IMG/VR virus record: IMGVR_UViG_3300035438_001058
Coordinates: 21,209 to 85,208 of that record
Source of the DNA: a virus
Length of the DNA stretch: 64,000 nucleotides
Direction: 5' to 3' (one strand)
The number at the start of each line of letters is the position of its first letter. Position 1 is the stretch's first letter. A program made the position numbers and the translations under genes. This document shows positions 10,249 to 32,570 of this stretch, piece by piece. A model generated the notes under the pieces. That model saw only the letters and a program-made list of their open reading frames with translations. It had not been told where the DNA came from and did no database searches.

Positions 10249-10497
10249 AGATTTTGTTTTAAAAAAATAAAGGCCCCCTCAACAAACATCTAAGCGCTTG
10301 CTTTGAGTACTAAACAATATTAACGCCCAAAATCCCGAAACTCAGCCTCCCAGCCAAGCACAGAACCAAGAACATCTACATCATAATTCCCTAAAGTCTA
10401 ATTAGAAGAATAGTCGAGGAGGCCATGTTAAGGAGGAAGCGATTGCGGCAATGGTCCGCAACGGCGTACAATATATAACAAGCCCTCCAGTCGCTCG

Positions 10498-11377: not shown

Positions 11378-12009
11378 AGTTGGATTCTTTTTGGAAACAC
11401 ACGATTTATCTCGGCTAAGATGTCGTTAGCCATTCGGCTGTCTTTCCTGCGAGGTGACCACACGAATATCCCACGTTTATCCCCTTTCCTACCGATGGTT
11501 CCAGAAACAATGGACCCCTGCTGGTAATCTAGGGACTCTACCAACTCTTGCACTCCGTTTTGGAAGGGGACAAGTTGTGCGGTGCCACTAAACCAGTGAA
11601 CACCGTCTGTGTACAGGATGGGCCTGTTGAGGACTACAATTTGCAGAATCCCATCGACTACTTTTACGTAGGCGGCTTCCACAAGTTGAATATCATTGCC
11701 TTGAAGACTCCAGGAACTATGTTCCATAGACACGTCGCCGACAATGCAGAAATCATTGGGTCGATATCCTGTCTCCGACACCTTTTCCATCAACATATTG
11801 CGAATGAGAATATGCTGCATGGGGGTTAAATGTAGAAGAGGCGAAGTCGTCACTCTGTTAGTGCCCTTCCCTCCCGTGTGTATTCGGATGAAAGTGCGTA
11901 ACTGAGAGCTTTCGCCCTTGTTGACGACTTGTATTTGTGCTGCGCCAGGCAACTGTATGAAATCACCGTTGTCATACTCCAGGCGACTTCCCATTTCGTA
12001 AATGTTCAT
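11374..12009 (-). CDS. Hypothetical protein (TGA stop in ATGA overlap)
   Basis: ORF track. Confidence 0.65.
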   Translation of the reverse strand: MNIYEMGSRLEYDNGDFIQLPGAAQIQVVNKGESSQLRTFIRIHTGGKGTNRVTTSPLLHLTPMQHILIRNMLMEKVSETGYRPNDFCIVGDVSMEHSSWSLQGNDIQLVEAAYVKVVDGILQIVVLNRPILYTDGVHWFSGTAQLVPFQNGVQELVESLDYQQGSIVSGTIGRKGDKRGIFVWSPRRKDSRMANDILAEINRVFPKRIQL

Positions 12010-12022
12010 AGGTTCAATTTAA

Positions 12023-12051
12023 TAGGGGGAGTATATTTCAACTCCCCCCTG
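12023..12051. terminator. Intergenic hairpin
   Basis: agggggag...ctccccct. Confidence 0.45.
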
Positions 12052-12056
12052 GTTAT

Positions 12057-14193: not shown

Positions 14194-15185
14194 AGCCTAG
14201 GCCTTGATAGGTTCTCAATAGCGTTTTGCTGGAGAGCTTGCGCTTTCTTTACCAGGCCCTTCAATCTGCCAGAGTAAACCCCATCAGTTGGGATAACTTT
14301 AAGGTTTCTGATCAGTCGTTGAGCCAGAGCGAGCAGTTTTAGATGCTGCTCTACGTTCGTGGTTACTTCCGCCAAGTTGACGGTTTTCTCTATCTCCTCG
14401 ATTTCCGCTATATACGGGAATGAGGCTTCTAGAGCCAACAACTCGTCGTAAACCATCTGCGTCATACCCCTAAAGGTGCGCAGTGCTTGTAGTCCGCCGA
14501 TTTCATGAATTCGGCGCATCATCATTACATCTCTAGGGGATACTTCAAATCCCAAATCATGGCACTTTTCTGCGATGCGAGCAACTTGAAGATCTGAAAA
14601 GCCTCTAGCCTCGAACATGGATTGAAAGTCATTAGCGGTGTAGCTAGGCCACTCAACTTTATGAGTGAACGCAAATCGACCTAACAGGGCATTGCGACTC
14701 TGGTCCTTCCCTGCCCATTTAAGAGGGTCTACATTTGTGCAAATGATAAGGGTTTGCAACTTATTAGGTTCGCATACCCCGTTAATGCAAATGTAACCTC
14801 TCTGTAGACCATCTTTTAAGGACAGCAGGAGATCGTCAGGTGCGTCAAATCCTTCTTCAAGGATCGCGTACCGGCTTTTGAGAAACACAGTATCTTCAAG
14901 CACTGTTTTCCGTTTACCCTCTTCTCTGAGGGTTTTGATGTCTGTGTACCCGACAAAAGGGCTCGCATCCATCTGCTGGGAGCAGGAAGCGATGTACGTT
15001 TCTCCGTAAAAATTGGGCGTCATTATTTTCAAACAAGCCTCCGCTATGTCTGATTTTGCGTGACCGCCCGGTCCGTGTAGAATTATGTTACTCTTTGACT
15101 TTAGAGCGTAGTAAATCGCTTCTGCAGTCGTCTGAGAGTGAACAAACTGGGACGTGATGGTATTCAAAAATTCTGGTAATTCCAT
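14190..15185 (-). CDS. MoxR-like AAA+ ATPase (TGA stop in GTGA overlap)
   Basis: IILHGPGGHAKS, AILEE, ALLGRF, SPR; coupled to the vWA gene. Confidence 0.8.
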   Translation of the reverse strand: MELPEFLNTITSQFVHSQTTAEAIYYALKSKSNIILHGPGGHAKSDIAEACLKIMTPNFYGETYIASCSQQMDASPFVGYTDIKTLREEGKRKTVLEDTVFLKSRYAILEEGFDAPDDLLLSLKDGLQRGYICINGVCEPNKLQTLIICTNVDPLKWAGKDQSRNALLGRFAFTHKVEWPSYTANDFQSMFEARGFSDLQVARIAEKCHDLGFEVSPRDVMMMRRIHEIGGLQALRTFRGMTQMVYDELLALEASFPYIAEIEEIEKTVNLAEVTTNVEQHLKLLALAQRLIRNLKVIPTDGVYSGRLKGLVKKAQALQQNAIENLSRPRL

Positions 15186-15223
15186 TTTTTTTGGAGAGAG
15201 GACTTAATGCCTCCCTCCATTTT

Positions 15224-16021
15224 TTAATCATACTTGTGTAAATCGTACGTCTCGATTACCCGCACAATCGTGGCGGCATAATCTGGTGCAGTTGCATACC
15301 CGCATTTTTGAAGCCCCGACGCCCACGACCGATAGTCTTTTGACCAAAACAGCCGCTTGTAACGCTTTGCCTTCAAGAATGCCGAGTGTCTTTTGTAAGA
15401 CTCTTCCGCACTCGTGAACTTCAGGAAAAAATCTTTGTGGGTATCATCCGTGTAATTCGAGCAGTGGCCCCTTTTGCAGGCTTTTGAAAAACACTTCAAC
15501 CCAAAATGGTTGTTGTTCTTCACGGCCAGTGAGGACGTGCCCGCTCTAGACTCTATTAGCCCCTGAGCTAAGGTTATAGAGGCAGGGATTCCTGTGTTTT
15601 TTGCTTCCCGTTGGGCAATCCGAGCGAATTTCGCGATATACGCTGGTGCGTCATATTGCGGGGGCATTGCCGGGGCTTGTGGGTTAGCCGCCTTCTTTTT
15701 GACGGGCTTATAAACCATCTTTTCCGGGGCCTGTACTGCCTCAGGGATTGGTTTTGCCACTGCATAGGCGTACACCAGCCGTGGACTTGGGTTATCACTC
15801 GTCAACGCGGTTACAGCACATCCAATGGTAGCTGTACCTGTCGCAAAGAACAACACAATGCCCACTTTGGTGTGCATATTGACACTCTTAAAAAACTTTA
15901 TTTGTATGAGGAACCACTCATGCAGTTCCAAATCCCTCACACTTTTTGTCTTTCTATATGGTTGCAGTTCCATACTAAAAAAATTTTGAGATTTAAAAAT
16001 AGACTTGTATTTGAACATCAA
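15224..16021 (-). CDS. GH73 glucosaminidase/muramidase (FlgJ-like) with TM segment
   Basis: GIPASITLAQGLIES, NNHFGLKC, GYATAPDYA. Confidence 0.9.
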   Translation of the reverse strand: MMFKYKSIFKSQNFFSMELQPYRKTKSVRDLELHEWFLIQIKFFKSVNMHTKVGIVLFFATGTATIGCAVTALTSDNPSPRLVYAYAVAKPIPEAVQAPEKMVYKPVKKKAANPQAPAMPPQYDAPAYIAKFARIAQREAKNTGIPASITLAQGLIESRAGTSSLAVKNNNHFGLKCFSKACKRGHCSNYTDDTHKDFFLKFTSAEESYKRHSAFLKAKRYKRLFWSKDYRSWASGLQKCGYATAPDYAATIVRVIETYDLHKYD

Positions 16022-16080
16022 AGACCGCCCTGTGAATCTTTGTCGATGTGCAGTACAAGCCTTTGCCAGGACTTGAGTTG

Positions 16081-16320
16081 TTACTTTTCAATACTCCGCC
16101 ACTTCTTGCGGATATCCGCCAACTCTTTCCCGAACAAGTCGTCCGAAACTGTTGACTCGGAGTAAAGGGCATCTGCTTTGGCGTTGATCTGGGCCAGCGC
16201 AGACACCTTCAGATTTTCCAAATCCACTACCAGATTAGTGGATTTAGGAGGAGGTCTTAGGCTTCTACCTATAAGAGTCCCCACTATAGCGGCAGCTAGT
16301 ACCGCAAACATTGTTTCCAT
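16081..16320 (-). CDS. Small membrane-anchored protein
   Basis: N-terminal hydrophobic helix. Confidence 0.55.
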   Translation of the reverse strand: METMFAVLAAAIVGTLIGRSLRPPPKSTNLVVDLENLKVSALAQINAKADALYSESTVSDDLFGKELADIRKKWRSIEK

Positions 16321-16829
16321 AAGTCGTAAAATACTTTTTCGGAAGCACTACCATGAGCGTCTCCAAGATGAGCGAATATTCCCGCTTCAGTACATACCCA
16401 GTCTTCTATGCCCTCTCTTTTGAGACGGTTAATAAAGGCCAGTCTATATTTAGCGGGAACTTTGTCCACGTATTCTTTCGCACTATTTCTCAACACAAAT
16501 ATTGAATTTTGTGCCAAGACGGCGGTTTCCACTCCATTCACCCACTTTGGGTGGGTGTACTCGTGCGCAAACAGCAGAGTAAGAAAATCCTCTGCTGGAA
16601 TGTTTCTTTCTTTTTCTCCGTCGTAAGCACAAGTCACTAGACTTCCGTTTACGGTGATTTTTGGCAGCGAAGACCCTTTAGGGGGTTTCACTATATTGGT
16701 ACTAATCTTCCCCCACAAAGAAGGGAATCTGAAAGGGGGTTTGGCGTTTACACACCAACTGCTCCATGCTTTATACACACGGTACAGGTAAACCCCCAGC
16801 AAGATCGCGCAACCTAGAATTACTTTCAT
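16296..16829 (-). CDS. Hypothetical protein with N-terminal TM (start re-assigned to 16829)
   Basis: MKVILGCAILLG begins in a TAATG overlap. Confidence 0.55.
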   Translation of the reverse strand: MKVILGCAILLGVYLYRVYKAWSSWCVNAKPPFRFPSLWGKISTNIVKPPKGSSLPKITVNGSLVTCAYDGEKERNIPAEDFLTLLFAHEYTHPKWVNGVETAVLAQNSIFVLRNSAKEYVDKVPAKYRLAFINRLKREGIEDWVCTEAGIFAHLGDAHGSASEKVFYDLWKQCLRY

Positions 16830-17014
16830 TATTCCAGGTCTCTGCATCTGCACATTACTGAATCCGTAAGGATCCCATTTGGTTGGGTGTTTTCCCTTAC
16901 ACACTCCCAAAAAGTCTGGGTGTGGGAGTACTTTTCCCATTTGTCGTACAGCCATAAAGCCGCCACAAATATAGTAGCGACTTTTATGACTTTAAATAAC
17001 CGTTGTTTACTCAT
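16829..17014 (-). CDS. Small membrane protein with Cys motif
   Basis: MSKQRLFK start at 17014, TM segment, TAATG coupling. Confidence 0.5.
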   Translation of the reverse strand: MSKQRLFKVIKVATIFVAALWLYDKWEKYSHTQTFWECVRENTQPNGILTDSVMCRCRDLE

Positions 17015-17032
17015 ATAAATTGATTTGGTGAG

Positions 17033-17123
17033 TGCCAGCAACAGGAGTCGAACCTGTATTTCATTACACGAACCCTTGAACGGAGAACCGTATAATGCGC
17101 ATTACCGCTAATGCTATGCTGGC
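17033..17123 (-). ncRNA. tRNA-like RNA with elongated anticodon arm
   Basis: Acceptor GCCAGCA/TGCTGGC, D arm GCAT-TAGCGGTA-ATGC, T arm ACAGG-TTCGACT-CCTGT; anticodon arm is 36 nt rather than 17. Confidence 0.75.
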
Positions 17124-17251
17124 TTAAAACCCCCCACCTGCATTCAGGTAGGGGGTAAACCGGCTCTGATAAAGTGTGCCCTTTCGGGGCCTGTAGTACG
17201 CTCACGACTAAACAGTCCAGAATAATCGCGCGACACTTCCAGTTTCCTCTA

Positions 17252-17596
17252 TCAGGCCTTCCCGTGTAAATACTCATCCAACGCCGAATCTTTATCCGAC
17301 GCTGGATATGCTAGTGGGTTTAGAGGGTGCGTCTCATGTACCGCTCCATCTTTAAATATCCACCAGCGAGTTTCTTTGACTACTAAAATGTGCTCTACGC
17401 GACATTTTAAGTAGTACTTAAATTCAAACAGTCCCCTCTTCTCCTCTATAATGGAGATGTACTCTGTAACCATATGGTCCAAGAGTTCTGGGACACCTGT
17501 AATGCCTTTAAGGCAAGATAGAATACCGAACATTGCGGGTATGCTATCCTCCTGCGAGGACTTTATCTTTAGGATTGACCGGAGATGACTAATCAT
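17252..17596 (-). CDS. Hypothetical protein (TGA stop)
   Basis: ORF track. Confidence 0.55.
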   Translation of the reverse strand: MISHLRSILKIKSSQEDSIPAMFGILSCLKGITGVPELLDHMVTEYISIIEEKRGLFEFKYYLKCRVEHILVVKETRWWIFKDGAVHETHPLNPLAYPASDKDSALDEYLHGKA

Positions 17597-17759
17597 CTTT
17601 CGGTTTTTTTGCTATTACCTTAACATTGTTGCGCTTTAGGCGCTCAGTGCCAAGGTAAGTGTTACCTAAAGTTGGGCTAAACAGCGGGGTCGACCGCTTT
17701 TTCGGCTTAGGAAGTGGGGTATAAAAACCCTTGCTTTTCCTAACTTTTTCGTTTTCCAT
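17589..17759 (-). CDS. 56-aa basic hypothetical protein, below the track cut-off
   Basis: MENEKVRKSKGFYTPLPKPKKR...KPKDD*; fills the gap and overlaps both neighbours. Confidence 0.5.
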   Translation of the reverse strand: MENEKVRKSKGFYTPLPKPKKRSTPLFSPTLGNTYLGTERLKRNNVKVIAKKPKDD

Positions 17760-18072
17760 ACTCGAATTTTTTTCGGGGGTGGAACCCGTTTTGACGAAAA
17801 TGCTCTGCCAGGCTCTCTACTATATTGTAGTTCTCGTCTAGCTCGGTAATTACCGTTTTTACTTTTCCGTATCGCCAGATATGCTGGTTCCTGACGACGG
17901 TAATTTTTGAATTTGATAGCTCGTCTACTATCCGAGGGATAGTGTACCCCTGTTCGTGCATATCCTGGATCATGGATACGCAGAGCGACATCGACGGCGA
18001 GTGTGTGGAGAGCCGTAAATTCTCTGCTACAAATCGCAGTGCAAAAGCGGCCCCCTTTTCGAATTCTGTCAT
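17740..18072 (-). CDS. Hypothetical protein
   Basis: ATGA-coupled start. Confidence 0.6.
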   Translation of the reverse strand: MTEFEKGAAFALRFVAENLRLSTHSPSMSLCVSMIQDMHEQGYTIPRIVDELSNSKITVVRNQHIWRYGKVKTVITELDENYNIVESLAEHFRQNGFHPRKKFEYGKRKS

Positions 18073-18983
18073 AATCCGAATCTTACGTTTATGGATGAAG
18101 CCAGATTTTTTATAGGGCTCACACCCCTCTGGCCGTTTTTGATTTCACTGTAGTCTACTAGCCATCCAAACTGAATGGCTTTTTTGTACTTTACCTGCAG
18201 TAAAGTCTTAATACCAAACCCATTGTAAAATGGATTGGTGGGTAAAAAGAGTTTACTGTTTATGATACTTGTCGCCATGCTAGTAATGTCGTCAGCGAAT
18301 GGTATGTGCAGTTTGGATATTTCTGCGTTTACCATTTCTGATACATCAGGTACTAGCCCGACATTGTTTGAGGCATCAAGTGATGTTACCCAGTAGGGGT
18401 AAACATTTCCTGATATCCCCCATTTTTTGTACGGGGACGACTTTAATGAGGGGCTGATAATGTTGTACATATTCAGCTCTACCCTAAGATCAACCCTGCC
18501 ACTAATGAGTGGCTTACTAGCCTCCTCTTTGAGGGCCGCAATTGCGAGCTCCTCTAATAGGTGGCTTCTGTCAGTCAAAAGATCAGCTATTAAGCCGATT
18601 GATTTTGCTGAGTATATACTGGGTTGCTCCATTCTACCTTTACCCCATTGTATAGAGGCTTGGGCGTACGGTATTCCCAGAGTCACAGATTTGGTAATCT
18701 CAAATCCTCTAAAGGATTGAGTTCTTACCCCTGTAAGTGGGTTAATATCCATCAAGATGTTTTCGACACCTATTGGGATATTGAATCCTATCTGATTTTC
18801 GACATCATGAATGTCGCTCTGATTAATCTTGGCATCAAAATACTGTTCTAGATCCACTGTTGAGGTGGAGTAACGGTATTGTATGCCATTGTTCACATCC
18901 ACCACACTGTGGCTCAGGAATCTACTAAAGTAGCCCTGAGCCTGTGCGGATGTAGCGATCAGCACTAAAATGACGACCCTCAT
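18069..18983 (-). CDS. Secreted putative outer-membrane beta-barrel protein (TGA stop, ATGA overlap)
   Basis: Signal peptide ending AQA-Q; amphipathic strands; C-terminus INVRFGL. Confidence 0.5.
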   Translation of the reverse strand: MRVVILVLIATSAQAQGYFSRFLSHSVVDVNNGIQYRYSTSTVDLEQYFDAKINQSDIHDVENQIGFNIPIGVENILMDINPLTGVRTQSFRGFEITKSVTLGIPYAQASIQWGKGRMEQPSIYSAKSIGLIADLLTDRSHLLEELAIAALKEEASKPLISGRVDLRVELNMYNIISPSLKSSPYKKWGISGNVYPYWVTSLDASNNVGLVPDVSEMVNAEISKLHIPFADDITSMATSIINSKLFLPTNPFYNGFGIKTLLQVKYKKAIQFGWLVDYSEIKNGQRGVSPIKNLASSINVRFGL

Positions 18984-19618
18984 TTAATAAGGGTTATGTC
19001 GCCAAAGTATGTCAGGCCATCGGTTGTGATGACCCATATATACACGGCTGGCGGATAATTTGCACCGTCCCAGCCACTAAACTCATCATTGGTGTAAAAG
19101 CCAGAGCGGCTCCACACCTCTGATCCCCAACGGTCGAACACCATCATCTCCTCAATGAGGATACTCTCCTCACTTATTGGATAGATGAAGGCGTTTATTG
19201 TGTCCCCGTTAGGACTGAACGCATTCGGCACCCAAAACTTGGCCTTTTTCTTAGGCCCGACAATTGCTGTATCAATAACAGCTGTGTCGATGGGTGTATC
19301 ACAACTAGTGGCAACAACCACCTGATCGTATGCGCCAATGGTGGACTTTCCGTCATCATTGACTAACACGATTCTAGTGTACCACAACGTGCCTGGCGTT
19401 GTGATAATAATCATTGTAGAGTCTTCACCTCCCCCAAACACATGGCCGAAGGGAAGCTCATACTCAGCACTACCTCCCGTTATATCAAACGTGGAGTACG
19501 ACCCAGTGGCTGGGTCTGATGTTTCATACAGGTAAAATGGTTCGCCTACGCAAACCTCCTGTTGGGCTGCCACTCCTGTACTCAGTAGCAGCAGCCCTAT
19601 TAGGACCCTATAGATCAT
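18980..19618 (-). CDS. Secreted protein with T9SS type-B C-terminal sorting domain (gliding-motility-associated CTD / CHU_C)
   Basis: Signal MIYRVLIGLLLLSTGVAA-Q; CTD VPNAFSPNGD...VFDRWG...GWDG...GDITLIK. Confidence 0.88.
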   Translation of the reverse strand: MIYRVLIGLLLLSTGVAAQQEVCVGEPFYLYETSDPATGSYSTFDITGGSAEYELPFGHVFGGGEDSTMIIITTPGTLWYTRIVLVNDDGKSTIGAYDQVVVATSCDTPIDTAVIDTAIVGPKKKAKFWVPNAFSPNGDTINAFIYPISEESILIEEMMVFDRWGSEVWSRSGFYTNDEFSGWDGANYPPAVYIWVITTDGLTYFGDITLIK

Positions 19619-20306
19619 TTTTATATAATTTTTTGGGGGTTGTCCCCCGTTTAACATATACCCCAATAGACGCGGAGTGCATACGTGCCGTATTAACTAC
19701 GGACGTAATGTCTACGTCTACTTGGAGCATTGCTCCGATCTTAACACCTGAATCAAACAGGTGCCCTATCCCAACTTTTATTGGGATGATTTTGCCTGAG
19801 TTCCGGTGTAGCGCGTTTTTTTTACGAATCATTGGCATTGCTGCCATCTGATCGTTCGCGCTTTTTAATGAGTTCAGTATTGTGGGGCGTCCGAACCCCT
19901 TATCGTAGACCAGCTTATAGCCGATCTTGAGGGTTACGAACTGATACCCCCCGGACAGGGCGAAATCTTCCCCGAACCCAGCCTCGATTGAGGCGGATAG
20001 GTACTGAAGTGCCGACTTAGAGGTCGACACTTCTGCCCGCAAGAATGCGGGGAAGGTTTCGTAATACGCTTCCGCATTCACCCCGAAAGATGGGGCGAAT
20101 ATGAAGCGTTTTAGCGACTTTTTGTAGTCGCTGAGCTGGATATTTTTGTCCTCCAGATAGGACACCAGATCGGTATTTTCATACCGGATCTTGGGGCTCA
20201 AGACCCCGAAGCCTGCAGACAAACCGTAGTCGATTTGCTGGGCGTACGTAGCGGTGGTAAGAAGCAGGAGGAAAACTATCCCCCTGCCCTTGATTTTGTT
20301 ATGCAT
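19608..20306 (-). CDS. Secreted putative outer-membrane beta-barrel protein
   Basis: Signal ending TYA-Q; YGLSAGFG, LKIGY, ASIGVYV strand patterns. Confidence 0.55.
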   Translation of the reverse strand: MHNKIKGRGIVFLLLLTTATYAQQIDYGLSAGFGVLSPKIRYENTDLVSYLEDKNIQLSDYKKSLKRFIFAPSFGVNAEAYYETFPAFLRAEVSTSKSALQYLSASIEAGFGEDFALSGGYQFVTLKIGYKLVYDKGFGRPTILNSLKSANDQMAAMPMIRKKNALHRNSGKIIPIKVGIGHLFDSGVKIGAMLQVDVDITSVVNTARMHSASIGVYVKRGTTPKKLYKNDL

Positions 20307-20307
20307 T

Positions 20308-20982
20308 TTATAGCTTTGGTTGTACGACGAACCCAGTTTCGTCGTTGTGTTTGAAGAGCTCGAATGCTGGGTTCGAGATTTGTTTCCACTCCCTGCTGTA
20401 CGTCAGCAGGGAGTATAGTGAGCGTCCATTATGCGCCAGACTAGCTGGTATGTATATTAGGTCTGCTGTCAACCTCCCTTGTGTGAGCGATCCCCAACCT
20501 ACACCGCTACCAGTGAAGTGGATGTTGCATCGCAATTCCCCCGACTCGTATATGTACCCAATACGGTCATTATCCTGCGAATTGTTTGCCCAGAGGGTAT
20601 ATTCCTTTGTTGCTCTGATTACCTCTTTGTCACCAATACCCCACATTTTCATGGAGTCAGCACAAGAGCGCGACACCTTTGCACAGGTCTCGGTAAGCGA
20701 CATAAAATATGTCGCCTTGGTTTCTAGCACTTGACTTTTAAACCAAGGCTGTGTGGACAACCACTTTGCCATTGTTGTGGCAGGAATGCTTAGTGTATGG
20801 GCTTTTTTGGGGTGCCAGATAGTGCACAAGTCACTTTTATTAGTGATGTGTACCCATCTGAGTTCATTGTCCTCCACAACACTCCAATCAAGAAGTTCAC
20901 ACTTCTCTTTTTCGGTTATGAAAAAACTAAAACCGTTGTAGGTGGGACAGACCCTTCGTTTACTTCCCAGGAATTTTTTCAT
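20308..20982 (-). CDS. Hypothetical protein
   Basis: ORF track. Confidence 0.6.
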   Translation of the reverse strand: MKKFLGSKRRVCPTYNGFSFFITEKEKCELLDWSVVEDNELRWVHITNKSDLCTIWHPKKAHTLSIPATTMAKWLSTQPWFKSQVLETKATYFMSLTETCAKVSRSCADSMKMWGIGDKEVIRATKEYTLWANNSQDNDRIGYIYESGELRCNIHFTGSGVGWGSLTQGRLTADLIYIPASLAHNGRSLYSLLTYSREWKQISNPAFELFKHNDETGFVVQPKL

Positions 20983-21013
20983 ACTTTGTTTTTTAGTTTA
21001 AAAGGTTAAAAAT

Positions 21014-21119
21014 CCCCAGGAATTGTGCTATAGTACTTGTGGCGGTTTCTAGTGAAACATTGACCATAGTTAGGCGGTTTCTAGTGAAACATTGACCAAG
21101 TAGTAGCACAACCCTGGGG
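21014..21119. repeat. Two exact 26-nt direct repeats nested in a long inverted repeat
   Basis: ggcggtttctagtgaaacattgacca at 21041-21066 and 21073-21098; outer arms ccccagg..ttgtgcta / tagcacaa..cctgggg. Confidence 0.85.
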
Positions 21120-21123
21120 TTGT

Positions 21124-21984
21124 TTATGCTTTGTAATGTGCTTGTGGTTGTTGCTCACCTTCTATGGTGATGAGTTTTTCGTAGCGGTCAAATGCCGCAT
21201 TGCACAATTGGGTGCGGTGATCTGGATGCACCCAGCAAGGTGCACTCAACACCACTGTTTTGTAGTGCAATCCCATCTCATAGTAGCCGTGGTGGCCACC
21301 ATTTAGCAGGTACTGGAGTTGGACGTTTGTAAACTCAGAGATGGTGGCGACCAGCTGGTCGAAATCTTGCAGCACTTTAGCGTGCTTTTGTTTAAACTCT
21401 TTCACTTCTGCGAGAGTTGCACTCTCAATGCTGCGCATTGATGTAAACGGCCCGCCAGCGTACTGCTGGGACCATAGCACCTTTGTGGTGCTATGGTTTT
21501 TGAATGCGGCAATAAGCCCGTCCATACCAGATGGACGTGGGTCTGCGATGAATTTTTTGACAGCCGTTCCAAGAATTTGCAATTCTTCGTTTTCTTTTGC
21601 CACTTTGGCCGCATAAGCCACCGCCTCAGCGGCGAGCCTTGCTCGATACGCCTTCGCATCCGCCACATCGGCCAGGATTTTTTCCAGGTTATTTGGCAAA
21701 CTTCTGGCCGATGCCCAGAAGTGGTATTCACGGCGGAAGTTCCGCCCTGAGATTAGTACCTGAACTACTTCAGGTAGCTCATTGAATTTTCGAGTATTCC
21801 ACTCGCTAGTCGTGATTCTAACTCCTTTAATGGTGAAATGAAAATCACTGCAAAATCGGTTAAATGTCACGGATAGGTGTCCTGCCGTGTACGTGAATCG
21901 GTCAAACTTGTTCTGATCGCTCATTTTTATATTTGAACTTTGGTTTGTTAGACCTTGGTAGTTAGCCCGTTCACTGATGTTCAA
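21124..21984 (-). CDS. Hypothetical early protein (start probably MSDQNK, near 21924)
   Basis: ORF track. Confidence 0.65.
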   Translation of the reverse strand: MNISERANYQGLTNQSSNIKMSDQNKFDRFTYTAGHLSVTFNRFCSDFHFTIKGVRITTSEWNTRKFNELPEVVQVLISGRNFRREYHFWASARSLPNNLEKILADVADAKAYRARLAAEAVAYAAKVAKENEELQILGTAVKKFIADPRPSGMDGLIAAFKNHSTTKVLWSQQYAGGPFTSMRSIESATLAEVKEFKQKHAKVLQDFDQLVATISEFTNVQLQYLLNGGHHGYYEMGLHYKTVVLSAPCWVHPDHRTQLCNAAFDRYEKLITIEGEQQPQAHYKA

Positions 21985-22122
21985 TCAGCATACCCCTTTT
22001 TCAGGGTTTTCCATAAATTTGCCTACTCTAGTTTACCCCTTTTCGGCTACCTGGGTAATGGTTACTGTGCTTGTAGAATGAGTGTCTACACTTAGCTGAC
22101 TACCTTAGTCAGAGCACTTTTT

Positions 22123-22398
22123 TTACTCGATTATATCCCCCCTTACATGGGACGATATTAGAATCCGCCCTAAAGCGGTTTTACTTGTCAGGATTAGAAC
22201 CTGATTGTCGCACCCGACCAGTGCGATACCTGTCGAGTCCTTACACAGGACGGTGACGGGTTTTACTAGTTTGGAGTAGGCCCGCGATTCACGAGCATTT
22301 ACAACGTCTTCCGCGGGGCGGTTGATGTCATCGTAATCCGCAACTTGCAGCGCAAAGGCTGCGAAGGCTGTGACTACTATAATTATGAAATATTTCAT
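22123..22398 (-). CDS. Small exported/membrane protein
   Basis: MKYFIIIVVTAFAAFA signal. Confidence 0.6.
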   Translation of the reverse strand: MKYFIIIVVTAFAAFALQVADYDDINRPAEDVVNARESRAYSKLVKPVTVLCKDSTGIALVGCDNQVLILTSKTALGRILISSHVRGDIIE

Positions 22399-22419
22399 AT
22401 TTAAATTTTTTAATATTTC

Positions 22420-22770
22420 TCAAAGGCCTCTATATCGAATTGGCCAATGATGAGAAAAGGTAATATCAAGGATTTCCCCCTTTCTAGGAAAAGGGGAACT
22501 AAAGAAGGTGTTAAAATCAAATCCCTCTATGAAGAGGTTGTCGGTAGCGGAGAGGATCTCAAGAACGCATTCGGCGTAATTGAGGGCACTAGCACGTCCC
22601 CAGGGGAAAGCAAAAACAAGGTATGTTTTATATCTTGTTTTGCGGATTGCGTACCCACTTGCGTGGCTTAACACCAATTTTCCCTTGTTGAAGCTAGGTA
22701 CTGTGTCTAAGTACCTAGCTTCCACTAATATGTCCTTCATTTTTTTATGGTTAAATTTCGCGTGGCTCAC
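22420..22770 (-). CDS. Hypothetical protein (TGA stop)
   Basis: ORF track. Confidence 0.5.
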   Translation of the reverse strand: MSHAKFNHKKMKDILVEARYLDTVPSFNKGKLVLSHASGYAIRKTRYKTYLVFAFPWGRASALNYAECVLEILSATDNLFIEGFDFNTFFSSPFPRKGEILDITFSHHWPIRYRGL

Positions 22771-23077
22771 TATGAGACAATATTTCTGGTACCCATTTTA
22801 GCCTACTACAAAGTCTATTGTGCAGCGTTCTGCACAATTCAGCTTCTGCCGGGGTTGCTGGGGCAAATTCCTCGCAAATTAATACGAGTTTTTTTATTCG
22901 GTCATTTGATAAATACCTAAAATAATAGGCATCGATAGGGATAAGGCAATCCTCGTCCGAGCAATGCCTCTCGTCGTCTATGTTATAGACGTATTCATCA
23001 ATAAGAGGGTTTTTAAAATTTGCGCAAACTCCTAGCGCTTTAGTTGACACTGTAAGCCTTGAAATGAAATGTCCCAT
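22751..23077 (-). CDS. Hypothetical protein
   Basis: ATG after A-rich leader. Confidence 0.55.
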   Translation of the reverse strand: MGHFISRLTVSTKALGVCANFKNPLIDEYVYNIDDERHCSDEDCLIPIDAYYFRYLSNDRIKKLVLICEEFAPATPAEAELCRTLHNRLCSRLKWVPEILSHSEPREI

Positions 23078-23181
23078 GATTTCGTTTTTTAATTTATTAA
23101 TTCATAGTTCGGCTATTTGCATTGGTTAGGTGCAAATATATTAAAATATAGACACAATGGGGTGGGAGGTTAGTTTTCTGG

Positions 23182-23694
23182 TTAGTTTTCTGGTTCTGTG
23201 ACGTTTTCTGGCTTCTCTTCTGGCTTCTCTTCTGGCTTCTCTTCTGGCTTCTCGATTGCACTCAAAGAAACCAATTGATTGTACAAAAAAGTATCCGACA
23301 TCGGATTGATGCAACTTACCGATATCCATTGTATCCGCGCATCTGCGGTTGAAACCTGGAATTTGCATTGTGCTGGCCCTGCATTTAGTTGCAAGGCAAC
23401 TTTCAAATGCATCTTGCACGTGTAAGGTATGTTGCCTACTAAAATTTCGGCAGTTCCTGTGCATTGCATCTTCTCTGAAGCAATGGTATATGTTTTGTCA
23501 TCGGCACCAACACGAGACTCGATACGAGACGTTGGTAGCCCGCTACATACGTAAGACTTCAGCGTCACCGCCTGTATCGGATCGTTCTGAACGAGCGCAA
23601 AAAGTTTTTGGTTTACAGAGCCACCACCGCCTGTTGGCGAAGTGATAGCCGCAAAAGCCGCCTTAACGGCTTCAAGTTTAGTTACCTGGAACAT
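23182..23694 (-). CDS. First gene of the leftward arm; C-terminal (KPEE)n tail
   Basis: 12-bp tandem repeat ttctggcttctc near 23205-23252. Confidence 0.65.
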   Translation of the reverse strand: MFQVTKLEAVKAAFAAITSPTGGGGSVNQKLFALVQNDPIQAVTLKSYVCSGLPTSRIESRVGADDKTYTIASEKMQCTGTAEILVGNIPYTCKMHLKVALQLNAGPAQCKFQVSTADARIQWISVSCINPMSDTFLYNQLVSLSAIEKPEEKPEEKPEEKPENVTEPEN

Positions 23695-23783: not shown

Positions 23784-23955
23784 AAGTTGGGGGCCTAACT
23801 CTTTAACCCGAATATGTAAGTTTGACTCTTTAACACGAATATGTAAGTTGGGGGCCAAGCTCTTTAATAGACATATATATATATATATATATAAATGAAG
23901 GGGGGGGGTCTTTATATAAATGGGGGGGTATCTTTATTTTAAAGGGGGGCGTATT
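23784..23955. repeat. Repeat cluster at the divergence point
   Basis: actctttaac(c/a)cgaatatgtaagtt at 23798 and 23825, aagttgggggcc twice, (AT)n 23873-23892, three G-runs. Confidence 0.8.
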
Positions 23956-23970
23956 TAGTCACTAGAATAC

Positions 23971-24001
23971 TTGCTTTTTCTCTTTTAATGTCGTATCTTT
24001 G
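23971..24001 (+). promoter_or_regulatory. Bacteroidota housekeeping-sigma promoter
   Basis: TTG-N20-TAtcTTTG matches the -33/-7 (TAnnTTTG) consensus. Confidence 0.75.
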
Positions 24002-24014
24002 TAAGAAATGTTAT

Positions 24015-24236: not shown

Positions 24237-24269
24237 ATGAAAATAAATTGAAAATAAATGACAAAAAAC

Positions 24270-24300
24270 TTGCATTTCGCATTTTAATGTTGTATCTTTG
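24270..24300 (+). promoter_or_regulatory. Second near-identical Bacteroidota promoter
   Basis: TTG-N20-TAtcTTTG sharing flanks with the first copy. Confidence 0.75.
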
Positions 24301-24304
24301 TACT

Positions 24305-24730
24305 TATTAACGAAGAAGCAATTCTTCCCTTGGAAACACCAATAGCAACCATCTCTGTCCGAAGAGATGTACGACCCTACGACACCACAGCAAGCACTGA
24401 CGTAGTCCTGGGTCCAGAAGTCGGATTGCCTACTAAGTTAGTTTAGGGAGTAGGTGCTTTTCTCCGATAGTTGCGCAAATGCGTATCATAAATGCGAGAA
24501 TTACTGTTGATTAATAAGTCGGAAAACTTATTTTTTGGGTCGCCCTTAATTGCGGAGCACTGGCAGTATATTAAGTAGGATTCGTAAACCCCGACCGGCT
24601 CTTTGAGGTAGAGAAGGTTCTTGTCAAAACTTTAAAAAGTGGAGGCAGGGCATTGCTATATCTTAATGTGAACTACATCATCAACCCCCTACCCCCTTCC
24701 AGGGGAGATTGATTTGAAAAAAATCAATCT
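24305..24730 (+). ncRNA. Candidate structured non-coding RNA or long leader
   Basis: No ORF in the track, promoter directly upstream, many nested complementary segments. Confidence 0.5.
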
Positions 24731-25416: not shown

Positions 25417-25748
25417 TGAACAGGAAAATGACAAATAACGCTAATTCTCAGCACGCTCAACAAGCAGCTATGAATCACCAAATGCACACACACTCTATTA
25501 CCGTACTTACTGAGTTGTACAAGAATACGCCAATTGAATCTAATTTAAGGCCAGCACTTGAGGAGGCATTACTAGGATTGCTAGAGCCATTCTTACCTAG
25601 GTTAGCTGCTCCACCAACATTTCAATCAACACTTGAACCAACATTTCAATCAAAAAGTATTCAATCAGAAGGTATTCAATCAGAAGGTGTTGTCTTAGAC
25701 ACCTATAATCCAGATTACACTTATACAGAATCTAAAATTATTCAGTAA
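25417..25748 (+). CDS. Hypothetical protein (start approximate)
   Basis: Short internal repeats PTFQS and IQSEG; TAATG coupling to groES. Confidence 0.5.
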
Positions 25749-26113
25749 TGGTTTTAACTCAAGATAAAGTACTTATTCAGTTGGATGAACATCCAGATCA
25801 CACTGTGACAGAATCTAATATTTATATCCCACAGTTTATAAATGCTGAGTCAGATGGTGGGCGCCCAATGTCTATTCCTTCTAATCAGAAGTATCTAGCT
25901 TCAGGTGTTGTGGTTGATTTATCAGATGCGGCTAAAAAGAAGATGGAAGATAACAACACTCCTATTAAGAAAGGAGATAAAGTTTTCGTATCTACATCGG
26001 TAGTTAACCAAGGTTATCATTTTCAACTTAAGAGAGATTCTATAGTTTATGATTTTGATGGTCTAGTACTAATTCCAACTATATTAATAGAGGCAATATT
26101 AAATGAAAAATAA
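25748..26113 (+). CDS. groES: Co-chaperonin GroES-like
   Basis: DKVLI...TESNIYIP...GVVV...IKKGDKV. Confidence 0.75.
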   Translation: MVLTQDKVLIQLDEHPDHTVTESNIYIPQFINAESDGGRPMSIPSNQKYLASGVVVDLSDAAKKKMEDNNTPIKKGDKVFVSTSVVNQGYHFQLKRDSIVYDFDGLVLIPTILIEAILNEK

Positions 26114-26486
26114 ACAAAAACCTAATACTCCAAAATCAGAAGTATTAAAAACAATAGAAACCCCAATGGTAGAACAACATATTTTCGATAGTCTTAATAG
26201 CGAGCACTCAAAATTTAAGGAAGAAATATCTATTATTACGAGTGAGCTTGAGGCTGTTAAGAAAGAGAGAGAAGCCTTTCAAAATATAGCTAATACAGCG
26301 GCTTCTAAGTTGGTAAGTATTGAATCTGCTGTTACTCCTTTTCTTAATAGAAAGTTCAATGTTGTAACAGCTATATATCATTTAAAGGATGTGGTCGAAC
26401 TTATTAAACAGATTGTAGAAGCTGTTAAAGAATTCCGTGCTCAGTTTATGGCACCTAACGTTAAACCTGATGATTCTACTAAATAA
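26103..26486 (+). CDS. Coiled-coil hypothetical protein
   Basis: ORF track. Confidence 0.6.
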   Translation: MKNKQKPNTPKSEVLKTIETPMVEQHIFDSLNSEHSKFKEEISIITSELEAVKKEREAFQNIANTAASKLVSIESAVTPFLNRKFNVVTAIYHLKDVVELIKQIVEAVKEFRAQFMAPNVKPDDSTK

Positions 26487-26964
26487 TTTTGATCCTTTTC
26501 AAGATTTTTTTAATAGCAATCCACAATTAAAGATCTTATTTAAAGATTATTTAAAAGTTCCTTCTTCCCATATGTGAGGTCTATTTCTATATTCTCATCC
26601 AGACTCAAAGTTTTTTAATGAGTCTCCAGAAGATAGAAAAGACCTCATATTTAAGGATTATCTTAAGAAAGATAAGACATTTGATTGGGATAAATATGAG
26701 GAGCTATTAAAGAAGATTGAAGTCTCTGTTTTAACTAAAGCTCAAAGAGCCCTTATGAGATGGGAACAGACGTTACATGAACGGGATGATTTCATAGCTT
26801 CTATTCCTTATACTCTCGAGACTTTTGAGGCTAAGGATAAGATGATGGCGATTACCCCAAAGCTTTGAGATCAATATGAAGCTGTATTAGATAGGTTGAA
26901 TAAAGATCAAGGATCTACAATGGGGGACATAGAAGAGTCTCTATCAGAAAAAGGTATTATATAA
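26470..26964 (+). CDS. 164-aa protein hidden by two TGA=Trp codons (26575, 26866)
   Basis: MILLNNFDPF...SHM(W)GLFLYSHPDSKF...PKL(W)DQYE...SEKGII*; fills an otherwise empty 490-bp gap. Confidence 0.8.
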
Positions 26965-27269: not shown

Positions 27270-27549
27270 GGGGGTGCCAGGTATTGATTGCACTCATAGG
27301 TTTGGTATTACTAGCAAGCAGTCTAAAGACTATAAATTTAAATAATCGACAATAATACTAATGACTTTGGTATCGGACTTCCGTCCTTTTCCACAGAAGC
27401 AGTTGCTCCTTCTGTTACTCAAGAGCAGCCAGTTTACCAGTACGCATAAGTTTACCACACTAATAGACTATAATATAGGTGTACAGAAGCTTGTAATTCT
27501 AGAATATTAAACGAGTCGTAAGACAGCGGTTCGAATCCGCTCACCTCCA
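27270..27549 (+). ncRNA. ssrA: Phage tmRNA
   Basis: Acceptor GGGGGTG/CACCTCC-A with G3:U, T arm AGCGG-TTCGAAT-CCGCT, internal tag frame 27348-27449. Confidence 0.85.
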
Positions 27550-27564
27550 CTAAAATTAATTATT

Positions 27565-27834: not shown

Positions 27835-27891
27835 ATCGCTAACAGTCGTTAGGTCTCGCCCTCCATGTCGTAAGATGTGAGGGGGCAATTC

Positions 27892-27963
27892 GGGGATATG
27901 GGGTAATCGGTAACCGGGAAGTCTTCAAAACTTTAGTTGTCTGTTCGAGTCAGACTGTCCTCG
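27892..27963 (+). tRNA. Opal suppressor tRNA, anticodon UCA (probably Trp)
   Basis: Acceptor GGGGATA/TGTCCTC, G73; anticodon arm GAAGT-CT TCA AA-ACTTT (TCA 27925-27927); T arm GTCTG-TTCGAGT-CAGAC; short variable loop. Confidence 0.92.
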
Positions 27964-27980
27964 CCCACAAAATTTTTATT

Positions 27981-28490: not shown

Positions 28491-28736
28491 ATGACTATAA
28501 AGGTTAATATTTCTTTCGAACTTTGGCCATATCAACAGTCTTACTCAGTAGAAATACCAGAAGATAAGTTTAAGGAAATGGATAAGTATGTGGATTCTAT
28601 AACATCTAATTTAAAGATGTCATTATTATCCCATGTACGTGTCCATCACCCTAATTTATGGTATAAATATTCTCCTTTAGAAGATCAAATACTGGCAACT
28701 TTAAAAATAGAAAATCACACACACAAAATTAAATAA
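28491..28736 (+). CDS. Hypothetical protein
   Basis: TAATG coupled to groEL. Confidence 0.55.
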   Translation: MTIKVNISFELWPYQQSYSVEIPEDKFKEMDKYVDSITSNLKMSLLSHVRVHHPNLWYKYSPLEDQILATLKIENHTHKIK

Positions 28737-30337
28737 TGACAAAGAATATTCATTTAGAAAAAGAAACACGAGATAAAATGCTGGAAGGTGTTTTAACTTT
28801 GGCACACGCAGTAGGATCTACACTAGGACCAATGGGGTCAAACGTAGTAATTGAGACTCCTTACGGAGCTACCACAGTTACTAAGGATGGAGTCACTGTA
28901 GCTAAACATATTGATTTAGATGATGCTGTGCAAAATTTAGGAGCGCAGATATTAAAACAAGCTGCTTCAAGAACAGCTACTCTTGCTGGCGATGGTACAA
29001 CAACTGCTACTGTAATAGCTGCGTCTTTAGTACAGTCTGCGCATAAATTAATTACTGCGGGTGTGAAGCCTATTGATATTAAAAGAAGGTTAGAAATTCT
29101 CTTATTAGAAGCTCTGAATAAGATTCGGATTCAAGCTAAGAGTGTTGACCTTAATAGGATTAAAGAGATCGCCACTATCTCAGCAAATAATGATGAGGAA
29201 ATGGGGGCTTTAATTCAAGACGCTTACAACCATGTTGGCCCCAATGGAATGATCACTTTAGAGGAATCTAAGACAGGTCTAACTCATTTGGTTATGGAAG
29301 AAGGAGTTTCTATTGACAAAGGATTTGTATCTCCTTATTTTATCACTGATTCTGCAAAAGGAGAATGTATTCTAGAGAATCCATTTATCTTTATTACTGA
29401 TTCTAAAGTTAGATATACTCAAGATATAGTACCTATATTGGAAATTGCTGCTTCTAAATCAAGGCCCCTTCTTATTATAGGAGACGAAGTAGATGCTCAA
29501 GCTCTTCAGTTGCTCGTACTAAATAAGATGCGCGGGACAATACAAGTATGTGCTATAAATGCCCCTTCTTTTGGGGATAACAGAACAGCGATATTAGAAG
29601 ATATTGCTGCCCTAACATCTACTACTATTATAACCGCTAAAGCTGGCACTAGGTTAGAGGATACTCCAGAAAGAGCATTAGGAAATGCTCAAAAAGTTAT
29701 CATATCAAAGTCGAAGACTATATTAGTAGGACCTAAGAATAACTTAGAGGCTATTGAGTCTAGAGCTGAAGAAATTCGTAACTCTATGGAATTGGAGCAA
29801 GATCTTTATTTAAAGAATAGACTTCAAAAAAGATTGGCTGATCTTACTGCTAAAGTAGCTGTGCTTCATGTTGGGGGAGCTACTGAAACTGAATTAAAAG
29901 AACGCAAAGATCGTGTAGATGATGCTCTAAGGGCTACTGCTTGTGCCATACAAAAAGGTTACCTTATTGGCGGCGGTGTAGCTCTAGCTCGTGTGTCTTC
30001 TTTCATAGAGATAAAAGATGCTTTAATAGATCCTATTTTTATAAACGCACTAACATCCCCTCTAAAATTAATAGCTTCAAATGCAGGGCAAACAGGAGAA
30101 GTAGTTTTAGCTAAAGTTTTATCTTCAGAAGATCTTGATATTGGTTTTAACGCTCGCACGCTCAAGTATTCTAATTTATTAGAGGATGGTGTAATAGATC
30201 CCGCGTTAGTAGTTGAGCAAGCACTCTCAAACGCAGTATCAGCGGCTTCTATGATATTACTTTCTGCTACGGCAATCACAAATAAAGATAGAAAACCTCC
30301 TTTTAATCCAGGTAATATGGAAGATTATGCTGCATAA
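28736..30337 (+). CDS. groEL: Chaperonin GroEL
   Basis: TLGPMG, VTKDGVTVAK, AGDGTTTATV, GGATETELKERKDRVDDAL, GVIDP. Confidence 0.97.
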   Translation: MTKNIHLEKETRDKMLEGVLTLAHAVGSTLGPMGSNVVIETPYGATTVTKDGVTVAKHIDLDDAVQNLGAQILKQAASRTATLAGDGTTTATVIAASLVQSAHKLITAGVKPIDIKRRLEILLLEALNKIRIQAKSVDLNRIKEIATISANNDEEMGALIQDAYNHVGPNGMITLEESKTGLTHLVMEEGVSIDKGFVSPYFITDSAKGECILENPFIFITDSKVRYTQDIVPILEIAASKSRPLLIIGDEVDAQALQLLVLNKMRGTIQVCAINAPSFGDNRTAILEDIAALTSTTIITAKAGTRLEDTPERALGNAQKVIISKSKTILVGPKNNLEAIESRAEEIRNSMELEQDLYLKNRLQKRLADLTAKVAVLHVGGATETELKERKDRVDDALRATACAIQKGYLIGGGVALARVSSFIEIKDALIDPIFINALTSPLKLIASNAGQTGEVVLAKVLSSEDLDIGFNARTLKYSNLLEDGVIDPALVVEQALSNAVSAASMILLSATAITNKDRKPPFNPGNMEDYAA

Positions 30338-32570
30338 TGCACAAAATTTCTTAGTCAAAGATGTGGAAATTCTCCATCCTTTGTCTCAAGATTATCGTTC
30401 TTATTGAAGAGAACACAAAAGAAGATGTATTGAAGGTTATTGGGTGGGTGGCATTTGGATGCCGCCTGCCCTTTACTATTATGTAAACTTTCATACTATA
30501 AAACTTAATAAAAGTATTCACACTAATACTAAGTCGTACGGTAGACCTTTGTTACGGGATATTGAGTGGGAATTTTTCTATAATTATTCTGAAGCGAGAG
30601 GTTTCTCAGGTTTTAAGAACGATGATAAGTATTCTTGTCATAGAATACTTTTGAATACTGAAGCTACAGACGATTACTTAATTAAATATTACCCAGAGAC
30701 TGTAAATTCTAAGGGGGAAAGAAAGACTTACGTGCCAGCTAGGACGTATATGCGTCAAGTACATCCTTTTGAATCTTCTCCTTTGTTTCAGAACGAGATT
30801 AGGAATTTTATGATGTTAGGATCTCGTGGATTTGGTAAATCTTTCTCTGTATCAGGACTCATAGCTCATAATTTCTTATTTGATGGAGCTACTGAATACA
30901 GCGAGGAAAAGATAATGAATCCGGACGCTGCTGAGATATTAGTAGGGGCGGCCAAATCTGATAGATCCGCAGATATTCTTAAAAAAGTGAAGGATGCATT
31001 TGATTTTTTACCCGGAAAACAGATGGTTAATAATAGGACACATCCATCACCATTCTCTAAACGATTTAGCGGATCTTGAGCAGTTAATTCCACTATTGCA
31101 GCAGAATATAAACGTAAAACAGAAGGTCAATGAACCACAGTAGGTTCCAGATCTAATATAAAGCACAGATCTTTCAACTCAGATGCTTTTGCAGCTCAAG
31201 GAACCAGGCCCATTTTACTAGTTTTGGAGGAAATAGGTATGTTTCCTAATTTAAAGGAAGTACACGCTAACACAGTGGATAACTTAACTGACGGTTACCG
31301 TAAGACTGGTATGGCTATGATGTTAGGAACAGGTGGTGACATGGAACAAGGTACTTTAGATGCTTCTGAAATGTTTTACGAGCCTGATAAATATGATATA
31401 TTGTCTTTTTCTAATGACTGAGAGAGTTCTGGTAACATAGGATACTTTGTTCCAGCGTATTTAGCGCTCAATCAATTTAAAGATGCGCAAGGAAATACCG
31501 ACATAGCGGCTGCTAAGAAGGAGATTGATTCTGTTAGGCGCAAGAAACGTGGAAACTCAGGATCTTCAGATGCGTTGAATAAGGAAATGCAGTATAGACC
31601 TATTGTTCCATCTGAAATGTTCTTAACTAAGACAGCTAACATCTTTCCTGCCGCTGAAATTAGGAGAAGGCTTTCAGAAGTGCAGTCATTTGATCTGTAT
31701 AACCAGTCAGAGAAGAAAGTTAATCTATATTTCGACCCAAAATCTCAGTTTAATGGTGTATCTTACAATATAAATGACTCTTTAAACGCCATTAGCTCGT
31801 TCCCGTACAAGGGAGATGATAGAGAAGGGGCTGTTGTTTTATACGAATTACCTAAGTTTATAGAAGACAAGGTCCCGTCAGATGCCTATATTATAGGATG
31901 TGACCCATTTAGAGATGATACGAATACAGGAGAATCTTTGGCAGCTATATATGTTATGAAAACCTCTAAATACATATCTAGTATAGGGTATGATGAGATA
32001 GTAGCCTCGTATATTGGTAGACCATACTTCGGTAAAAATGAGGTAAACGAAACTCTATATAAATTGTCCTTATTTTATGGGGGTGCTAAGATTTATTTTG
32101 AGAATGCAGTAGGAAATGTAAAAGATTACTTTGAGAAAATCAGAAGACTAGACTTATTAGCTAGGCAACCAGTCACAGTTTTTAATAAGAAAGCTTCTTA
32201 TGATTCATCCCCGCAAGTTATTTATGGGTACCCAATGTCTAATGATAAAGTAAAATGAGAAGCGATACAATACTTACGCTCTTGGTTATTGCAAGAACGT
32301 GAAGAAAATAAAAGAAATCTGGATTTAATTATAGATCCAGGCCTACTTCAAGAGTTATTGGCCTTTAATATGAGTATAAATACTGATAGAGTAATGTCTT
32401 TAGTAGGTTGTATAATAGGATTAGAAGAAATAAACAATATCTCGAAAAGAAAGCAAGAGTTTTTGTCTGAAGATAGCGCACTTCAGAAGGACATTAATAG
32501 GTTAATTATAAATAATAAACGTTTATTTCAAGATGTTAAATTTCCCAAAGCAACGTCTCTCCTATTCTAA
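30327..32570 (+). CDS. terL: Terminase large subunit, 747 aa, five TGA=Trp (30405, 31077, 31131, 31419, 32256)
   Basis: Four track fragments share one frame broken only by TGA. Walker A GSRGFGKS, Walker B LVLEEIG, nuclease IIGCDP; directly upstream of the portal. Confidence 0.93.

Follow-up and report, generated by a model that had tools for sequence, protein, structure and literature searches.

Phage suppressor tRNAs that convert TGA to tryptophan are established, including in crAss-like phages (10.1101/2021.08.26.457843; PMC12386605; 10.1101/2025.10.30.685624). The zeta crAss-like phage Lera, for example, carries a tRNA-SUP-TCA (PMC12386605). In a study that screened 31 phage tRNAs with the anticodon UCA, hereafter tRNA(UCA), all 13 that were tested inserted tryptophan in an E. 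coli extract, and orthogonal UGA-decoding pairs were reported (10.1101/2025.10.30.685624). Borges et al. argue that the host TrpRS is co-opted (10.1101/2021.08.26.457843). Here we describe a tRNA(UCA) that is a further example of these published TGA-to-Trp opal suppressors. It lies in a 64,000-nt stretch of DNA that was analysed as a whole (the window), bases 21209-85208 of an 85.2-kb IMG/VR record whose completeness is estimated at about 85%.

The phage of the window and the published code-4 recoded phages have in common a UCA tRNA, TGA at tryptophan positions of TerL and the structural genes, other genes in the standard code and a host that is presumed to use the standard code. The AP1 tRNA has G73, as does the window tRNA. 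There are also differences. The published code-4 phages are from the gut, whereas the window phage is from freshwater and belongs to a distinct crAss-like lineage. Its replication genes are recoded, whereas the Agate example kept them standard, and its record is without the TrpRS/RF1 "code change module" of published recoded phages; no TrpRS or release-factor domain was found in the roughly 85% of the genome that the record covers. The tRNA-Trp(UCA) of Mycoplasma, Spiroplasma and mitochondria represents the same solution, in which U34 reads UGA and probably UGG. Those cases are genome-wide cellular reassignments with loss of RF2, whereas the phage tRNA must compete with the host RF2 in a genome that partly keeps TGA as a stop.

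The plus arm of the window, from 24 kb on, encodes a GroES-like protein, GroEL, TerL, a portal, a major head protein and tail/virion proteins, and the minus arm includes a replication module with a PolA-like polymerase, helicases, a primase, Sak4 and an exonuclease. Among cultured phages, TerL is best matched by Cellulophaga phage phi14:2 (36.8%); the next matches are crAss-like gut phages, Flavobacterium phages and an Azobacteroides phage. Because of these matches and the presence of homologous TerL genes on 95-107 kb contigs, we regard the phage as crAss-like, and its host is most likely a member of the Bacteroidota. Lake, freshwater and crustacean-associated metagenomes of about a dozen studies contain DNA of the phage. 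A search with the phage GroEL against one genome each of 185,579 prokaryotic (bacterial and archaeal) species returned only five contigs, which had been binned to unrelated MAGs. Many TerL homologues of about 1050-1110 aa (P0010, P0015, P0028, P0041, P0053 and others) contain intein/homing-endonuclease domains (PF14528, PF05204, PF14890); the TerL of the window has neither intein nor homing-endonuclease domains.

The tRNA gene occupies 72 nt at 27892-27963 of the plus strand and is genuine. ARAGORN recovered one tRNA with the anticodon tca at 27891-27967, drawn on the SeC template. The Rfam model RF00005 spans 27892-27963 (+) end to end with 52.8 bits (E 1.7e-8, model positions 1-71), against a gathering score of 29, and flags a single non-standard pair, 10-25. 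Read from the sequence, the acceptor stem consists of G1-C72, G2.U71, G3-C70, G4-C69, A5-U68, U6.G67 and A7-U66. The 4-bp D stem (G10.G25, G11-C24, G12-C23, U13-A22) closes an 8-nt loop, the 5-bp anticodon stem carries the loop C-U-UCA-A-A, the variable region is 4 nt long and the 5-bp T arm has the loop UUCGAGU, giving a type I tRNA with the 7/5 acceptor/T arrangement. Folded on its own, the bare tRNA does not take the cloverleaf as its minimum-energy structure (z -0.71), which is usual for tRNAs and was not counted against the call.

The discriminator G73 is at 27963 and is followed by CCCACA. There is no CCA in register after G73, and a CCA lies one base out of register at 27965-27967. The alternative ARAGORN register has C-1:G73 as an eighth pair, and C and then CCA come after it. 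We kept the 7-bp register with G73, because the homologue L124 encodes CCA directly after G73. All eight of the eight G73-type short forms, the homologues of the plain cloverleaf type, have a pyrimidine at position -1 and C at position 74, which are ordinary features of a 7-bp tRNA precursor. Every detail given in the preliminary description, from the complete cloverleaf with its CU-UCA-AA loop, G73 and short variable arm to the G10-G25 mismatch and the missing exact CCA, agrees with the sequence and the Rfam alignment.

The reading of TGA was examined in the protein-coding genes. With TGA treated as a sense codon, the coverage of the genome by long ORFs was 0.89 instead of 0.80. Recoding of TAG was rejected, as TAG as sense gave no rise in this coverage. 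The gene for TerL, the terminase large subunit (30327-32570, plus strand; PHROG 6681), has five in-frame TGAs at 30405, 31077, 31131, 31419 and 32256. Code 11 cuts it into six pieces; code 4 gives one frame of 785 codons, in which the PHROG 6681 match covers residues 48-759 across the TGAs. The five TGA columns are Trp-dominated in 84 homologues. Circularity was avoided by using only the 44 related loci without an in-gene TerL TGA for the column test, and in these loci TGG-Trp occupied 42/42, 28/44, 40/44, 25/44 and 28/40 of the five columns, the rest being mostly Tyr, Phe and Leu. A conserved 175-aa gene at 26437-26964 (plus strand) has in-frame TGAs at 26575-26577 and 26866-26868, and in its approximately 45 relatives both columns are Trp, mostly encoded by TGG and sometimes by TGA. 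All seven tested in-frame TGAs, five in TerL and two in this gene, are thus on TGG-Trp columns of standard-code relatives. These alignments indicate that TGA is read as Trp in this phage.

The same pattern extends over the structural and replication modules. PHROG matches run across TGAs in TerL, Sak4, the DnaB-like helicase and the primase. Many of the tail/virion genes (44027-59123, plus strand; PHROG structural matches) have in-frame TGAs, and their code-4 ORFs join same-frame fragments: 44027-45628 contains one internal TGA, 45631-48882 three, 48886-50379 four, and 51107-52489 and 54819-59123 two each. The plus-arm genes end in TAA 37 times and in TAG once, and use 118 TGG and 20 internal TGA codons. 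Ten code-11 "TGA stops" in this arm continue in frame, with homology crossing them where tested. The replication module has 49 TGG and 8 internal TGA codons, and TGA makes up about 14% of the Trp codons in the two modules. TerL is the clearest client of the tRNA(UCA). Judging from these reading frames, essential genes (TerL, tail, helicase, Sak4, primase) could not be made without UGA decoding.

Module B (5812-23694, minus strand) follows a different regime, in which TGA is still a terminator. Its code-11 stops are 11 TAA, 10 TGA and 4 TAG, so that 10 of the 25 genes end in TGA, and there is almost no internal TGA. Readthrough of the TGA stops would add 0-31 residues, and two of them are directly followed by TAG. 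The GC content of module B is 0.42-0.47, compared with about 0.35 in the plus arm. Its products include two glucosaminidase-domain proteins, a MoxR/VWA pair and a CHU_C type IX secretion-signal protein (18980-19663).

Several identity elements of the tRNA are in line with tryptophan. The preliminary description had named G73 as a TrpRS identity element, in agreement with bacterial Trp identity, where G73 is a major determinant in E. coli and B. subtilis (PMC9976931). The window tRNA matches the published bacterial Trp set at G73, C35, A36, U31-A39, G3-C70 and G4-C69 (PMC9976931). It is without C34, A1-U72 (G1-C72 instead), G2-C71 (G2.U71) and G5-C68 (A5-U68), and A1-U72 is present in four of the seven short-form homologues. 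Of these elements, A1-U72 and G5-C68 are minor determinants, and G2-C71, G3-C70 and G4-C69 belong to the B. subtilis set. The change of C34 to U34 is required for UGA reading, with C35 and A36 kept. With E. coli trpT and its UCA derivatives, the tRNA shares G73, C35, A36, A37-A38, U31-A39, the type I form and the 7/5 arrangement; it is unlike trpT in U34, G1-C72, G2.U71, A5-U68, G9, G10.G25 and a variable region of 4 rather than 5 nt. A covariance model of the seven short forms, run against E. coli K-12, ranked trpT first with 76 bits, the next tRNA reaching 58.8 bits and selC being unlisted.

A functional tRNA that inserts an amino acid other than Trp at UGA, namely Gly (as in code 25), Arg, Cys, Ser or Sec, is very unlikely, although several features could be read in its favor. 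By plain identity the window tRNA is marginally closer to E. coli tRNA-Gly(UCC) (55.6%) than to trpT (54.8%), and C35 is also an ArgRS determinant. Bacterial tRNA-Gly and tRNA-Cys carry U73, however, and the window tRNA has G73; it also has U20, not the A20 of tRNA-Arg. For the published crAss-like tRNA-SUP-TCA, tRNAscan-SE gave "Trp or Arg" (PMC12386605). The plain identity of the related L003 tRNA(UCA) is highest to trpT, and the family model likewise puts trpT at the top. A further argument comes from the seven TGA columns, which are all Trp-dominated and whose main alternatives are Tyr, Phe or Leu, never Gly, Arg, Cys or Ser. TGA as Gly was accordingly rejected on these columns and on G73. 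Bacterial tRNA-Sec (selC) has the UCA anticodon, G73 and the ARAGORN SeC label in common with the window tRNA, but a long variable arm, a 6-bp D stem and 8/5 helices are absent, and selC was not among the model matches; tRNA-Sec was rejected, and the same features exclude a Ser type. The 4-nt variable region, 4-bp D stem and 7/5 architecture bear out the distinction from tRNA-Sec drawn in the preliminary description. The tRNA(UCA) almost certainly reads UGA as tryptophan.

Homologues of the tRNA were collected from phages with related terminases and by a pattern scan of IMG/VR. The covariation alignment comprised the window tRNA and six phage homologues, all seven being short-form G73-type tRNA(UCA). 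In this alignment 96.6% of the cells pair on the cloverleaf and 18 of the 21 pairs change on both sides; none of 500 shuffles reached the observed covariation, and slid registers were 39-49% paired. The anticodon loop and G73 are invariant in all seven. The compensatory pattern indicates that the tRNA(UCA) is under structural selection. Among the seven short forms the window tRNA has diverged furthest; its nearest homologue is L003 (80.6% identical), and its G10.G25 D arm is kept in both L003 and L006. No difference inside the tRNA and 11 variable sites in its flanks were seen in contigs of four independent freshwater runs, which is weak evidence as only about 0.7 changes would be expected in 72 nt. 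With BLASTN, the tRNA region had no match in the phage collection, and the window tRNA and the L019 homologue had none in E. coli genomes, for which these queries are too short; an exact-pattern search of IMG/VR for further window-type short forms returned only two matches, both already known. A scan of 185,579 bacterial and archaeal species, each represented by one genome, found no tRNA-Trp(CCA) with the D arm of the window tRNA and thus gives no support to a host ancestry of the tRNA(UCA).

The tRNA(UCA) is the only canonical UGA decoder in the record, which contains in addition one aberrant tRNA-like RNA. In a complete relative with terminal repeats, the tRNA(UCA) is the only tRNA. Of the relatives whose sequence extends 4 kb or more upstream of TerL, 12 with a recoded TerL have a tRNA(UCA) and 7 do not, whereas 2 with an unrecoded TerL have one and 19 do not (Fisher p 6.5e-4; the loci are not independent and many are near-duplicates). 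The two unrecoded carriers are L015 and L032, which have no TGA in TerL. The apparent absence in L005 is not a loss, as its tRNA is split by a group I intron. The proposal of the preliminary description that a UCA opal suppressor is the code switch is supported in silico, in that the tRNA is real, TGA corresponds to Trp in seven of seven columns and no other canonical UGA decoder is present in the record.

The aberrant RNA at 17033-17123 (-) is tRNA-shaped, scoring 46.7 bits with Rfam, and has A73. The acceptor, D and T arms are intact, and 19 additional nucleotides extend the anticodon arm to a stem of about 10 bp with UUCAA in the apical loop (fold z -4.65). At this position, the tRNA-like gene L164:1501-1632 of a 99%-complete relative carries an insert of about 60 nt.

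These data bear on the possibility that the tRNA(UCA) is a non-decoding relic or decoy and that UGA is read by the near-cognate host tRNA-Trp(CCA), by the 17033-17123 RNA or by a factor encoded in the missing part of the genome. We consider this highly improbable. The seven recoded relatives without a detectable tRNA(UCA) would fit such a situation, but at least one of these apparent absences (L005) is an intron-split tRNA, and overall the tRNA co-occurs with recoding and is the sole tRNA of a complete relative. The UUCAA at the tip of the lengthened anticodon arm could suggest decoding by the minus-arm RNA, but an anticodon arm about 7 bp longer should not fit the ribosome. The record covers only about 85% of the genome, and the remainder could encode another decoder or a TrpRS. 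Against a relic stand the cloverleaf kept by compensatory changes, the anticodon loop invariant in seven homologues and, more weakly given the 0.7 changes expected, the tRNA that is unchanged in four populations while its flanks vary.

Taken together, the tRNA(UCA) is very likely a functional phage opal suppressor, a tRNA-Trp derivative with UCA in place of CCA that serves the TGA-written Trp codons of the phage. Its expression, processing, charging by the host TrpRS and timing are steps that we infer. In the proposed mechanism, the tRNA would probably be transcribed with its plus-arm neighbors and excised by the host RNase P and 3' processing enzymes, and the host CCA-adding enzyme would add CCA. 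Since the record encodes no TrpRS, the TrpRS of the host, most likely a Bacteroidota enzyme, would charge it with tryptophan. The charged tRNA would then compete with the host RF2 at UGA, so that the approximately 14% of Trp codons that are TGA would be translated. The products of the TGA-ended genes of module B would have their correct ends until the tRNA accumulates, and would carry short extensions from then on.

The genes around the tRNA are in the same-strand order ORF 26437-26964, small ORF, tmRNA, small ORF, hairpin, tRNA(UCA), DUF5856 gene, GroEL and TerL, and the DUF5856 gene starts 17 nt after the tRNA. The phage tmRNA is located 340 nt upstream of the tRNA (27270-27552, plus strand; ARAGORN, and Rfam with 54.6 bits) and has a tag of 33 residues ending in YQYA. 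A tmRNA adjoins the tRNA(UCA) also in L008/9/11/13 and L051, and L018 has a tmRNA with no tRNA detected. The genes for the GroES-like protein (25748-26113, plus strand; Cpn10, 26.7 bits) and a full GroEL (28736-30337, plus strand; Cpn60, 207 bits) bracket the tmRNA/tRNA cassette. A leader hairpin at 27858-27886 (plus strand; MFE -22.1 kcal/mol, z -3.48) ends 5 nt before the 5' end of the tRNA and is not followed by a U run. Equivalent hairpins are present 5-6 nt before the tRNA at L003:3293-3323 (z -2.4) and L019:7506-7537 (z -5.1) but not in L006. The outer stem of the hairpin differs between the window and L003, and the inner part is similar. The hairpin could be a processing or stability element.

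This neighborhood is also relevant to the proposal that the tRNA acts mainly against the host, damaging it or weakening its defences through readthrough of host UGA stops, and that phage decoding is secondary. Such a role has been proposed for crAss-like phages that have suppressor tRNAs but no recoding (PMC12386605), and the tmRNA and the GroES/GroEL pair adjoining the tRNA, as well as L015 and L032 with a tRNA(UCA) and a TerL without TGA, would be compatible with it. As the main role it is hardly probable, because the essential TGA-bearing genes make decoding of the phage's own genes necessary anyway, and the two roles are not exclusive.

The preliminary description had placed host-type promoters at the head of the arm that contains the tRNA, the plus arm, and two 38-nt elements of Bacteroidota type were indeed found there and nowhere else in the window. 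Both copies form the direct repeat family D1 on the plus strand and have the general form TTG-N19/20-TAnnTTTG; copy 1 (23966-24003) reads TTG-N19-TATCTTTG and is of the Bacteroidota sigma-A type, and copy 2 (24265-24302) is 3.6 kb upstream of the tRNA. The window contains two copies of their 21-nt core, where 0.01 would be expected. From these motifs, the elements are putative promoters. A sigma-70 promoter scan of the window was not enriched (30 found, 24.3 expected), nor was the Bacteroidota -7 motif window-wide (79 found, 73 expected), and only the duplicated 38-nt element stands out. Copy 2 is followed by about 400 nt without an ORF (24303-24708), a region with no Rfam family match. The divergent region between the arms (23870-23950) contains an (AT)n run, several G8-G9 runs and short direct repeats (D6, D7, D16).

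The arrangement had been taken to mean that the tRNA could be made before the TGA-containing genes are needed. This timing argument is weakened, because the two-TGA gene 26437-26964 precedes the tRNA in the plus arm. The distance from the tRNA to TerL is 2.3 kb, with no terminator detected between them. Gene order alone does not show that the tRNA is made first, since a TGA gene lies upstream, TerL follows at 2.3 kb and the replication genes of the opposite arm also contain TGA.

Sister phages carry a different design of the tRNA(UCA). In L008/9/11/13, L015/32, L016/27, L051, L070 and L075, it is 93-100 nt long and two-headed, with a second 5-bp stem and a 7-nt loop N-U-CCA-A-A between the anticodon and T arms that copies the Trp anticodon arm. 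Representative loci are L008:7632-7725, L015:5513-5610, L016:216-309, L051:4112-4205, L070:3368-3467 and L075:4815-4909, all with G73 and mostly with A1-U72. The second arm is present in L005, L008, L015, L016, L051, L070 and L075 and absent from the window, L003, L006 and L019. The IMG/VR tRNAs sharing the same anticodon arm comprise 13 short and 37 long forms, and a CCA-type loop is present in 24 of the latter. No published description of a second CCA arm in a phage tRNA(UCA) was found.

L005, whose TerL is 80% identical to that of the window, has a two-headed tRNA(UCA) between the same flanking genes (5335-6860), and this tRNA is interrupted twice. The first insertion is a group I intron in the anticodon loop (5371-5562; Rfam 50.5 bits) with an ORF that has an HNH-like motif, and the second, in the T loop, has a weak group I match (22 bits) and also carries an ORF. 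The two-headed forms and the window tRNA have in common the phage family, the position upstream of TerL, the UCA loop, G73 and a purine at position 1, and the acceptor top G1-C72/G2.U71/G3-C70/G4-C69 with G73 is shared by the window, L005 and L008. The window tRNA is unlike them in its 4-nt variable region, the missing second arm and a D arm unrelated to their long-stem D arm. A tentative and rather doubtful explanation is that the single-headed design replaced the two-headed one at the same slot and that TrpRS recognizes it without a CCA triplet via a phage-specific body. This body may be the conserved G10.G25 mismatch together with the G1-C72/G2.U71 top. If true, the matched natural tRNA pair would directly test how far bacterial TrpRS depends on C34. 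The comparison of single- and two-headed tRNAs is the only lead toward something new at this locus.

The two natural forms of tRNA(UCA), one having the CCA arm and the other lacking it, are usable for studies of TrpRS recognition, and could serve to build orthogonal UGA-decoding pairs. Annotation pipelines need information on TGA recoding, because code 11 fragments TerL. The tRNA(UCA) described here adds a well-supported TGA-to-Trp case outside gut microbiomes. It also presents one genome with two regimes, where the structural and replication genes use TGA as a sense codon and 10 of the 25 genes of module B end in it.
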